A stretch of 64,000 nt of DNA from an uncultured Gammaproteobacteria bacterium (GTDB lineage Bacteria > Pseudomonadota > Gammaproteobacteria > GCA-001735895): contig CAXMRQ010000181.1 in the NCBI GenBank assembly GCA_964196115.1, positions 223 to 64,222 on the forward strand. The letters are read 5' to 3'. Each line of letters opens with the position of its first letter. Within the stretch, counting starts at the first letter, position 1. Positions 25,097-33,312 of this stretch are shown here, piece by piece. The notes beneath the pieces were generated by a model. The model was not told where the DNA came from. It ran no database searches and saw nothing but the letters and a program-made list of their open reading frames with translations. A program made the translations under genes and the position numbers.

Positions 25097-25200
25097 TTAA
25101 AACTGTCCGCTTTGGTAATCCATATAAGCCTGCTGTAATTCTGCCTGATTGTTTATTACAAATGGCCCGCTGCGGGCAATGGGTTCGCCAGGCGGTTTGT
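25097..25200. repeat. direct repeat: displaced copy of the pirin gene 3' end (left boundary of inserted island)
   Basis: A 104 bp stretch about 93% identical to 32449-32552, which is the 3' end of the intact pirin gene on the minus strand. Confidence 0.8.
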
Positions 25201-25496
25201 CGGCCACAAATATGGCTGGTTGAGATTTTCATCACTATATTCTCGGAGCTACAAAGGTACAATGCGTTACCAATATTTTGGAAAGTTACCGACCGACACA
25301 TTTCGGTCCAAATTACTAATTATTAACAATTCAGTTTCGTTACTGCCCGCTGTGATAATTCATATGAGGCTGTCGCAGCCTGAAGCTACCCTCTAACAGA
25401 ACAATGACAGGTATTGCCGTGTCGCCCCTGTCTCGGGATAGTGCACGCCTACTAACTGCTGCAACATTACATTGGTGTACTATATTAGATGAGCAA

Positions 25497-26600
25497 ATGG
25501 CCATTTTTGAAAAAGAAATACTAAAGGTAATCTCGGACAAGGATATCGTCGACCTGTCGAAGGCTTCAATCAACCAAAATCTCTCTACTGTCGATTTTGA
25601 TCAGGATGCGAAATTCTTTTATATCACGATTGACCGAATACTATTTTCTAATCCAGTTAGCACGATCAAAACGGTGCTTGATGCGCATGGTTTTGTACCT
25701 AATCTAGAAAATATTTTATCCTGCCTGGACAGTCTTAACTTTTCCATATATGGCAAGAGCCCCGGAAAGGGCAATAAGAATTCGCCAGCTAAAGTCAGTG
25801 AATATTTCCCCTGCATCCGATTCGAATTACCGAAAAAAAATAATATTGGCGATACCCTTCGCAGCTTTTATGATGAGATTTCCAAATACGAATCGAAACT
25901 ATCTGACAAGAATTTACCCGCGTGGGCGCCGAACCCGGAACTTAAAAAGAACAAAGATCTGCGCGAGGAAATAAAGCAACTGAAGGCCGCCAACGAAGAG
26001 CTTTCAGATCAGGTTAGTGTGCTCACTCAACAATTAAACCGGGAGCAGAAATCACTTAGCAGGGCATCCCGGGCGCTGGATTCGCAACGCGTATTACCGG
26101 AAAACGCGAAAATGTGCCGAGTCGAGAAGGTCGACCTGAAGCGCCGAAAAATTAAAGTGAAGTGCCAGAAGGAAGTCATCGATATCCCGACCCATATGCT
26201 GGATCGAATTCCCAATTTTCAGGAGCGCTGCCTGATCATTCTGGAAGAAGGCCTGGATCTGCCGCTCGGCATTATCTTTTTCACCAGCGAGGAAATTGAT
26301 CGTCTGGAAAAGCGTACCGCGGAACTTTTATACGTCGAGAAAGACAGGTTTAAGGCTCGCGATTCTATGCGTAACGAATTTCAAATCAAAGCTGTGAATC
26401 CGATGGAGGCAGAAACCATAAAATCACTCAGCCGTGGCATGAAAGTGGTTATTTCTATCGTCGATGGTTACGTGGTTCATTTTTCCGTCTATGGCTCAAA
26501 AAATTCGGCGCAGTTTACCAGTCGCATACAGGAACAGCTGATTGTATATGACATTGCCAAAAATCAATTAGTTAACCTGGCTGAAGATAAAAAACAGTAA
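25497..26600 (+). CDS. hypothetical coiled-coil protein, first gene of island operon
   Basis: A central heptad-like segment (LREEIKQLKAANEELSDQVSVLTQQLNREQKSL) is present and I recognise no family. An alternative upstream start lies at 25404. The next gene begins 17 nt after this one ends. Confidence 0.5.
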   Translation: MAIFEKEILKVISDKDIVDLSKASINQNLSTVDFDQDAKFFYITIDRILFSNPVSTIKTVLDAHGFVPNLENILSCLDSLNFSIYGKSPGKGNKNSPAKVSEYFPCIRFELPKKNNIGDTLRSFYDEISKYESKLSDKNLPAWAPNPELKKNKDLREEIKQLKAANEELSDQVSVLTQQLNREQKSLSRASRALDSQRVLPENAKMCRVEKVDLKRRKIKVKCQKEVIDIPTHMLDRIPNFQERCLIILEEGLDLPLGIIFFTSEEIDRLEKRTAELLYVEKDRFKARDSMRNEFQIKAVNPMEAETIKSLSRGMKVVISIVDGYVVHFSVYGSKNSAQFTSRIQEQLIVYDIAKNQLVNLAEDKKQ

Positions 26601-32419: not shown

Positions 32420-32448
32420 CCGACACAGGGGTTGAACCCTGAGCGGTT

Positions 32449-33312
32449 TTAAAACTGTCCGCTTTGGTAATCCATATAAGCCTGTTGTAACTCTGCCTGA
32501 CTGTTCATCACAAATGGCCCGCTGCGGGCAATGGGTTCGCCTAGCGGTTTGCCAGCGATGAGTAGAAACCTGGCCATTTGATCCTGGCTGTGGAGATCGA
32601 TAACCGTGCCTTTAGTCAAAACTGCGAGCTGATCTCGGATCACCTTGGTCGATTCGCCCTGTTCGGTCTCTAGCGTGACCGAGCCTTCGATGACATAAAC
32701 GAAGGCGTTGTGCTGCTCGGGTAAAGCTTCCGAAAAAGTGGTGTTTGCCTCAAGGCTAACATCCAGATACAGCGGCTCGGTTAGCGGTTGCGAGACCGGC
32801 CCCGCCGTGCCTTGCGATGTGTTACCGGTGATTACCTTGATGCTGGTGCCAGGACGGGTTTCCAGTGGAATATTGTCGGCATCGTGTTCCTGGTAAGTCG
32901 GTTGAGTCATCTTGTGCGATGCGGGCAGGTTAACCCAGAGCTGGAATCCCTCAAGTCTGCCGTCCTCCTGTTCGGGCATTTCTGAGTGTACTATACCCCT
33001 GCCGGCTGTCATCCATTGAATGCCTCCGGGTTCGATGACACCTTCATTACCGGCACTATCCTTGTGGCGCATGCGACCGTCTAATAAATAAGTGACGGTT
33101 TCGAAACCACGGTGCGGATGTGAAGGGAAGCCAGCGATGTAGTCATTTGGGTTATCCGAACGAAACGCGTCTAGCAGCAAAAACGGATCGAGTTCCTGCA
33201 ATGCTGGTTGGCCTATCACTCTAACCAGCTTGACTCCAGCACCATCGGTGGCAGGCATGCCTGTAATCAAACTTCTCAGTTTTCGTGATTTCGAGGTGCT
33301 GGAATCGTTCAT
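32449..33312 (-). CDS. pirin-family protein (cupin)
   Basis: Has the metal-binding motif HPHRGFETVTYLLDG...H...E in a bicupin arrangement. Its 3' end is the right-hand copy of the 104-bp direct repeat. Confidence 0.85.
   Translation of the reverse strand: MNDSSTSKSRKLRSLITGMPATDGAGVKLVRVIGQPALQELDPFLLLDAFRSDNPNDYIAGFPSHPHRGFETVTYLLDGRMRHKDSAGNEGVIEPGGIQWMTAGRGIVHSEMPEQEDGRLEGFQLWVNLPASHKMTQPTYQEHDADNIPLETRPGTSIKVITGNTSQGTAGPVSQPLTEPLYLDVSLEANTTFSEALPEQHNAFVYVIEGSVTLETEQGESTKVIRDQLAVLTKGTVIDLHSQDQMARFLLIAGKPLGEPIARSGPFVMNSQAELQQAYMDYQSGQF

Follow-up and report, generated by a model that had tools for sequence, protein, structure and literature searches.

In a 64,000-nucleotide stretch of contig CAXMRQ010000181.1 from an uncultured marine gammaproteobacterium (the window, to which all positions refer unless another locus is named), a compact accessory operon of four genes lies beside the core gene pirin and is bracketed by two copies of the pirin 3' end. 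One copy completes the intact gene; the other has been displaced and is decaying. We give an even chance to the view that homology-anchored additive recombination ("3'-end displacement") placed this operon, here called the cassette, beside pirin, in a variable slot between core genes. Ordinary homologous recombination is more likely than a dedicated integrase to have made the insertion scar, and, as changes in bacterial genomes go, the event is a fairly ordinary one. We infer both the enzymology (RecA, not an integrase) and the direction (a cassette added to an arrangement in which pirin was followed by a thioredoxin-like, or Trx, gene). The cargo is an unclassified operon that joins a MotAB-like pair with a helicase. 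This combination, which is not Zorya, is more novel than the scar and is the item most worth following.

The scar and the gene that it adjoins comprise the following features:
25097-25204, minus strand: left repeat, pirin codons 253-287 plus stop in a displaced copy that is decaying.
32449-32556, minus strand: right repeat, codons 253-287 plus stop of intact pirin; the functional 3' end.
32449-33312, minus strand: intact pirin (YhaK-like bicupin), 287 aa, with full Pirin and Pirin_C domains (Pfam).
32420-32448, no strand: spacer of 29 bp separating the stop codons of the convergent helicase and pirin genes, with the short hairpin CAGGG-TTCAAC-CCCTG.

The direct repeat (25097-25204 versus 32449-32556) was gap-free over 103-108 nt, with 96 of 103 positions identical (93.2%); the chance expectation for such a pair in 64 kb is ~2e-39. 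A reading of this DNA made earlier from the letters alone (the sequence-only reading) had put the identity at about 93% and had taken the right copy for the true 3' end of pirin, and both the alignment and the intact Pirin plus Pirin_C gene bear this out. The stop codon of pirin was the exact end of the repeat, and the two sequences were unrelated from the next base onward. The 5' edge fell at pirin codon 253, where similarity was gone within ~10 nt. Read on past this edge, the left copy would give F, V and D, whereas 118-119 of 120 pirins show L, I and G at these sites; the 5' repeat boundary is therefore real. Residual pirin similarity 5' of codon 253 was dismissed, as it falls on invariant positions and did not raise the score. 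When compared by blastn with ~150 fetched loci, the repeat matched pirin gene 3' ends only and is thus not a dispersed element, a possibility that the sequence-only reading had allowed for. An apparently longer pirin fragment in L001 (63 aa, tblastn) arose artificially from a scaffolding gap, ten Ns long, that shifts the frame.

The left copy is a decaying pseudogene fragment, as judged by its changes at invariant residues, an excess of G-to-A substitutions and extra damage in strain L157. It lay outside any long open reading frame (ORF). Over 105 sites it had 8 differences from the right copy: six were G-to-A changes, and three altered conserved residues (L to P, M to I and S to N). The pirin C-terminus is conserved across the 120 homologues, and the first two of these changes fell at positions invariant in 119-120 of them: the left copy has P and I where 119-120 of the 120 pirins have I/L and M. 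In L157 the left copy carried two further damaging substitutions, P to H and G to E. Neither of the repeat copies resembles an allele that came from a distant host. Two stretches, of 32 and 36 nt, are still identical between the repeats. Recombination by RecA requires a minimum length of homology, and these stretches should still let RecA remove the cassette or turn it back into a circle; the repeats therefore predict cassette loss or circularisation by host recombination.

The cassette and the displaced pirin end occupy a gap that is closed on its far side by a second core gene, with a two-gene module between them:
21819-22907, plus strand: apbC/mrp-type Fe-S carrier ATPase, the core gene that closes the slot opposite pirin (NCBIfam ApbC equivalog: 451 bits, cut-off 348).
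23282-24310, minus strand: beta-propeller/BNR-like protein, 342 aa (weak Pfam BNR_4 and NCBIfam beta-propeller repeat matches); second gene of the pair.
24483-24986, minus strand: thioredoxin-like protein (DsbH/Thioredoxin_2-like), 167 aa (Pfam Thioredoxin_2, 1.4e-13); first gene of the pair.

In this bacterium pirin and apbC/mrp, two convergent core genes, enclose a slot of variable content. The region had no megablast match in E. coli genomes, and the organism is thus not an enteric one. The same arrangement as in the window was present in four other contigs (L001-L003 and L156) at >99.7% identity, and the order BNR, Trx, fragment and cassette was the slot state of the window, L001-L003 and L157. 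In the four nearest syntenic species (L005, L006, L010 and L014), pirin was directly convergent with apbC/mrp across a spacer of 58-118 bp; identity to the window was 72-83% for pirin, 81-84% for Mrp and ~80% for MetG. Synteny was strong on both sides, with dcd-lysR-doxX-flavodoxin-pirin and apbC-metG and the genes beyond it collinear with L005 and L006. Because pirin abuts apbC in the nearest species, all of 22908-32448 (BNR, Trx, fragment and cassette; ~9.5 kb) is extra. In L153 and L154 (pirin 98% identical) the helicase gene followed immediately after pirin, and in L155 a 97% DNA identity over 1.9 kb (doxX-flavodoxin-pirin) gave way to unrelated DNA straight past the pirin stop. L144, which is about as distant as L005, had its cassette on the apbC side of this same locus, the cassette proteins being 78-90% identical, and had no pirin fragment; a histidine kinase, a response regulator and a Big_9 protein lay between apbC and the cassette. 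Beyond the close relatives, the DNA downstream of pirin differed species by species. The slot thus showed at least four content states among close relatives and others further out, and the locus varies among relatives without always carrying the same cassette, in keeping with the sequence-only reading. That reading had also looked to related genomes for an empty site in which pirin is followed directly by the Trx-like gene at 24483-24986. Such a site was seen nowhere in exact-protein look-ups, a genome scan, a metagenome scan or the relatives with 96-98% pirin identity, among which close-strain sampling was thin; the nearest species have pirin next to apbC.

Two further slot contents were observed. 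In L155, positions 1895-1981, on a short contig, look like the 3' end of a further gene that converges on pirin (...DGNQFGKVVISMEVD*). In L011 (pirin 71%), positions 1239-6087 encode a weakly JetD_C-like protein and a 1227-aa SbcC/JetC-like ATPase, convergent with pirin and directly downstream of it. Judged by sequence, the pair appears to be a Wadjet-like defence system that occupies the corresponding position of the slot.

Pirin is itself a recombination mosaic. The window and L153 had no mismatches over 32900-34300 (1.4 kb) and 23 mismatches over 32458-32900 (~5%), and they diverged by ~2% in the 3' end of the helicase gene. This pattern marks a recombination breakpoint inside pirin at ~32900, with the pirin 3' half (32458-32900) being a recombinant tract relative to L153. 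In the L154/L157 sample, the left fragment was the same as in the window and the functional pirin end was the L153-type allele. The repeat copies of that sample were only ~86% identical, because the pirin end there is another allele. L157 was 99.6% identical to the window over 6.2 kb, with 24 differences (23 mismatches and one 1-bp indel). Fifteen of the 24 were crowded into 118 bp of cassette gene 1 (26150-26267), a patch that looks like a short imported recombination tract in the cassette. The 29-bp spacer was the same in L153 and differed at ~16 positions in L154 (2248-2272), though L153 and L154 share the pirin end, suggesting that 32420-32448 is a tiny hypervariable segment.

Domain searches found no integrase or transposase in the four interior genes, as the sequence-only reading had noted, or in ~10 kb of flank on either side, and there was no tRNA in the window. 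Among 134 ORFs located up to 3 kb downstream of pirin in ~60 species, no integrase or transposase was present in the 25 commonest Pfam families, a listing that one or two integrases could escape. Pirin and the cassette had no match on viral contigs, plasmids or phages. The ORF at 41343-42476 and its homologue beside Trx in L086 were considered as mobility genes and ruled out, since both are SQR-like Pyr_redox_2 proteins. The cassette itself was found in unrelated contexts in L145, L148, L149 and L151, between housekeeping or other genes and with no recombinase; its complete copies in L145 and L149 had no flanking direct repeat of at least 20 nt and no integrase. The junctions at the pirin end were common only to strains of one species cluster. 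We infer that the cassette is not self-mobile and is a passenger of host recombination.

Base composition set the interior apart to a modest degree. GC content was 45.5% over 25201-32448 versus 49.8% for the window once the extra DNA is taken out; this placed the interior at the 3rd percentile of same-size windows and agrees with the sequence-only impression of a more AT-rich interior. GC content at third codon positions (GC3) was 0.48-0.53 in the cassette versus 0.557 ± 0.039, or ~1-2 standard deviations low. The codon-usage distance of the cassette was unremarkable.

A second island in the window, at nadC, has the same anatomy as the one at pirin: an intact copy is joined to the upstream synteny and a decayed copy lies past the cargo. 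Its direct repeats (2558-3449 and 7952-9005) are ~1.05 kb long with 85-87% identity. One copy consists of intact nadC (7976-8803) and the 3' end of a CLC-channel gene, and the other of nadC' with a frameshift and a 146-bp deletion. The cargo (3479-7904) encodes a TetR protein, an MttB-family methyltransferase and a flavin oxidoreductase (Oxidored_FMN/Pyr_redox). A whole-gene repeat of ~1 kb cannot be a recombinase attachment (att) site, and a homology-driven additive process is therefore indicated in this genome.

If homology-anchored additive recombination built the pirin locus, the incoming DNA would have carried a pirin 3' end and the four-gene cassette and would have recombined with the resident pirin additively, with no replacement, homology within pirin serving as the anchor. 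The route may have been a Campbell-type single crossover of a circularised fragment or homology-facilitated illegitimate recombination (HFIR). The last 35 pirin codons would have been duplicated in the process. The gene-contiguous copy would have stayed functional, and the old end, still joined to the former downstream Trx-BNR genes, would have been displaced by 7.35 kb and left to decay. The repeat would stop at the stop codon because the homology of the two parental arrangements ended there.

Several points weigh against this reconstruction. Neither the pre-insertion allele (pirin->Trx-BNR) nor the donor allele was found, and the event is rebuilt from one product. In 105 nt the phylogenetic signal is too thin to tell which copy is native, and rooting of the comparison with L004 and L005 was ambiguous because the G-to-A changes of the left copy match outgroup states at some synonymous sites. 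The L144 contig stops within the helicase gene, so that pirin adjacency there is assumed, not seen. Classical HFIR mostly deletes, rather than duplicates, recipient DNA. A circular single crossover fits better than HFIR, because recipient DNA was duplicated and not deleted; no circular carrier is known for it, and there were no plasmid or phage matches. Finally, a 104-bp repeat that restores a gene 3' end is exactly what integrase-borne surrogate ends look like, and an integrase acting in trans would leave no trace in the island.

These last points lead to a site-specific alternative, in which the cassette is what remains of an integrative element, or else is itself cis-mobilisable and served by an integrase encoded elsewhere. 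Its attP would have carried a surrogate pirin 3' end, and the repeats would be attL and attR. We regard this alternative as unlikely. Phage 21 and e14 at icd, as well as integrative and conjugative elements (ICEs) and their integrase-less, cis-mobilisable derivatives (CIMEs), insert in the 3' end of protein genes with a surrogate end. The pirin locus shares their pattern of direct repeats that bracket the cargo, one completing the target gene to its stop and the other being a displaced partial 3' end; the slight AT-richness of the cargo relative to its flanks and the presence of the same junctions in several strains also fit. However, the island differs from such elements in having no integrase, nor is a recombinase present in its flanks, and its cargo amounts to one operon, in which phage and conjugation genes are lacking. 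Elsewhere this cargo occurs with neither repeats nor recombinase, and L144 has a cassette at this very locus without the fragment. There was no evidence of the pirin end as a recurrent target, and integrases were lacking among the commonest families downstream of pirin in the ~60 species. The lack of pirin and cassette matches on viral contigs, plasmids and phages also counts against site-specific integration, as does the finding that neither repeat copy is an outlier allele from a distant host. The nadC island, in addition, shows the same anatomy with 1-kb repeats. The sequence-only reading had seen in the pirin repeats the signature of an integrative element that inserts into a gene end and rebuilds it. 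The displaced 3' end is indeed a genuine scar of DNA addition, with the intact end on the cargo side, whereas the recombinase, the recurrence and the matching empty site that would go with an integrative element were not found; the observation was right and its mechanistic label was probably wrong.

Events could also have run in the reverse direction, to which we assign a similarly low probability. The cassette would then have been resident next to pirin, as in L144, and a block of pirin 3' fragment, Trx and BNR would have come from a relative with the order pirin->Trx->BNR-><-apbC, anchored in apbC and joined illegitimately at the upstream end of the cassette. Identity between the window and L144 was alike for the cassette (78-90%) and for housekeeping proteins (Mrp 85%, MetG 82%), which fits long residence of the cassette at the locus; the two genomes differ in what lies between apbC and the cassette, and the Trx-BNR module occurs in many contexts. 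Such a course needs the same unobserved pirin->Trx arrangement, now in the donor, and leaves the fragment boundary without a reason, and shallow inspection of the apbC-BNR spacer showed no scar. The present data cannot separate this direction from addition of the cassette to pirin. A purely local origin is very improbable by comparison: slippage during replication, or a tandem duplication with a later deletion, would have copied a short pirin segment independently of any gene gain. An unrooted four-point test over 105 nt did group the left copy with the window-type allele (14 vs 23 and 23), nearest the window's own pirin. Nevertheless, the copies lie 7.35 kb apart and exactly bracket an accessory operon, the whole 9.5-kb interval is missing from the nearest syntenic species, and the repeat edge is the stop codon, where gene content changes.

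Additive recombination at pirin resembles two kinds of exchange known from other bacteria. One comprises hotspots of horizontal transfer flanked by core genes, together with defence hotspots that have no mobility genes, as in the core defence hotspots of P. aeruginosa (PMC10250203). As in those hotspots, syntenic core genes (pirin and apbC) flank a slot of changing content with no mobility genes, a breakpoint lies in a flanking core gene, and a Wadjet-like system appears to occupy the position in another lineage. Classical turnover at such sites is double-crossover replacement with no duplication, whereas the pirin exchange was additive and left a 104-bp scar. The pirin-apbC slot thus has the features of a core-gene-flanked variable hotspot, with exchange that is additive. 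HFIR has been proposed for 3'-end displacement in type VI secretion system (T6SS) effector-immunity and Rhs loci (PMC5361080). At Rhs, contact-dependent inhibition (CDI) and T6SS loci, as would be the case at pirin, incoming DNA anchored in conserved upstream sequence adds a downstream module, the old 3' end and its downstream genes are shifted on, and the orphan fragment keeps short homology. In contrast to those loci, pirin is a bicupin with a conserved C-terminus and not a polymorphic toxin, a single displacement is visible, and the module at pirin is a convergent operon in its own right, not a new tip of the gene.

The pirin scar would be a clean, datable case of an accessory operon added beside a core gene without a mobility gene, and the window would hold two such cases, at pirin and at nadC. 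They are of use for understanding the turnover of integrase-free islands, and they warn against calling every gene-end repeat an att site.

The interior between the repeats is one compact plus-strand operon of ~7 kb with four genes, preceded by a leader:
25205-25496, plus strand: cassette leader, AT-rich and non-coding; the same in L001-L003 and L157, with no match at other cassette loci.
25497-26600, plus strand: cassette gene 1, ~367 aa, unannotated; the longest ORF starts at 25404.
26618-27436, plus strand: cassette gene 2, PomA/MotA-like proton-channel protein (stator A), 272 aa (Pfam MotA_ExbB, 4e-18).
27433-28077, plus strand: cassette gene 3, MotB/OmpA-like protein (stator B), 214 aa (Pfam MotB_plug and OmpA).
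28097-32419, plus strand: cassette gene 4, 1440 aa, with an Upf1-like superfamily 1 (SF1) helicase core at ~520-1300 (Pfam AAA_11 and AAA_12).

The true start of gene 1 is likely to be 25497, because its homologues (~367-371 aa) align from there. Gene 1 matched no Pfam, PADLOC or NCBIfam family and had 184 homologues, nearly all of them in uncultured marine Gammaproteobacteria. Its predicted structure, of moderate confidence (pLDDT 65), has a long coiled coil followed by beta-barrels, and fold matches of the model to coiled-coil plus OB modules were weak (TM ~0.15) and serve as a lead only. Gene 2 matched NCBIfam PomA at 1.9e-28, under the cut-off, and PDB PomA (8brd) at 3.7e-21; its end overlaps the start of gene 3 by 4 nt. 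Gene 3 matched the PADLOC ZorB models at 4.6e-14 and scored higher, at 4e-30, with flagellar MotB/MotD (NCBIfam, below cut-offs), a generic MotB/OmpA signal. The PDB matches of gene 4 were IGHMBP2, Sen1 and Upf1. Gene 4 also gave partial helicase-domain matches to the anti-phage proteins ProA, Hhe, PLuB, MkoA/C and PDC-S37, all far under the PADLOC and NCBIfam cut-offs. In Pfam-independent libraries no cassette protein reached any curated cut-off, and no published system that joins a PomA/MotB-like pair to an SF1 helicase turned up in a literature search.

Zorya anti-phage systems consist of ZorAB with ZorC/D, ZorE or ZorF/G (PMC11946911). The cassette shares with Zorya a MotA/MotB-like membrane pair, a large cytoplasmic protein with a helicase domain and one more protein, all in a compact operon found in variable contexts. 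It differs in its A subunit, which is PomA-like, 272 aa long and without the long tail of ZorA (~700 aa), and which had no PADLOC ZorA match, and in its helicase, which is Upf1-like SF1. PADLOC found none of the Zorya partners ZorC, D, E, F or G among the cassette proteins. The cassette thus resembles Zorya in architecture and is not a Zorya member. We tentatively suggest, as a possibility that is rather doubtful, that the cargo is a candidate undescribed system against phages or mobile genetic elements with a Zorya-like build: a PomA/MotB stator-like pair, a coiled-coil/beta-barrel adaptor and a 1440-aa Upf1-like helicase effector. It would spread among marine Gammaproteobacteria without its own recombinase through a RecA-dependent cycle of excision and reinsertion, with duplicated core-gene ends as portable homology. 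Should a defence role be borne out, the cargo would add to the known ion-driven motors that are coupled to nucleic-acid effectors.

A conserved ORF of 114 aa was observed ~650-700 bp upstream of gene 1 in distant cassettes (L148, 8931-9275; L149, 8991-9335; L150, 52-396) and was absent from the window and L144. It may be an optional fifth cassette component.

The Trx-BNR pair on the apbC side is a conserved two-gene module, present in 60 metagenome contigs in unrelated contexts, with BNR always beside a Trx-like gene. In 30 of the 60 contigs the sequence reaches 1 kb or more upstream of Trx, and in these neither pirin nor apbC was near and there was no synteny with the window. One more feature lies between Trx and the left repeat:
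25010-25059, minus strand: element of ~50 nt upstream of Trx, overlapping a promoter-like TTGATA-17-TAAATT at 25055-25027.

The element was 78-92% conserved upstream of Trx in L084, L087, L088, L090, L091 and L142 (blastn), suggesting that it belongs to the Trx module and not to the repeat. It is possibly a shared regulatory site. Its copy in L086 (5079-5121) was observed ~80 nt upstream of a different ORF, of 821 aa.

Other repeats in the window were noted apart from the two islands. A 22-nt exact inverted match (GGTCGAATGAATTCGACCCTAC) lay just beyond both nadC repeat copies. The region 40264-44586 contains inverted repeats of 99 nt at 85% identity (40264-40362 versus 44488-44586) and of 86 nt at 99% (43400-43485 versus 44367-44452), together with a 49-nt direct repeat at 43222 and 44296. 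The repeats of this region surround DsrE-like and SQR-like (Pyr_redox_2) genes, and no mobility gene was found in it. Two families of short palindromic repeats, ~31-54 nt long, intergenic and similar to repetitive extragenic palindromic (REP) elements, were also present, for example AAGATTCCTGCCTTCGCAGGAATGACG. The REP-like elements were at 51065-51099, 55780-55810 and 55854-55884, and at 54298-54346, 63322-63371 and 63454-63514.

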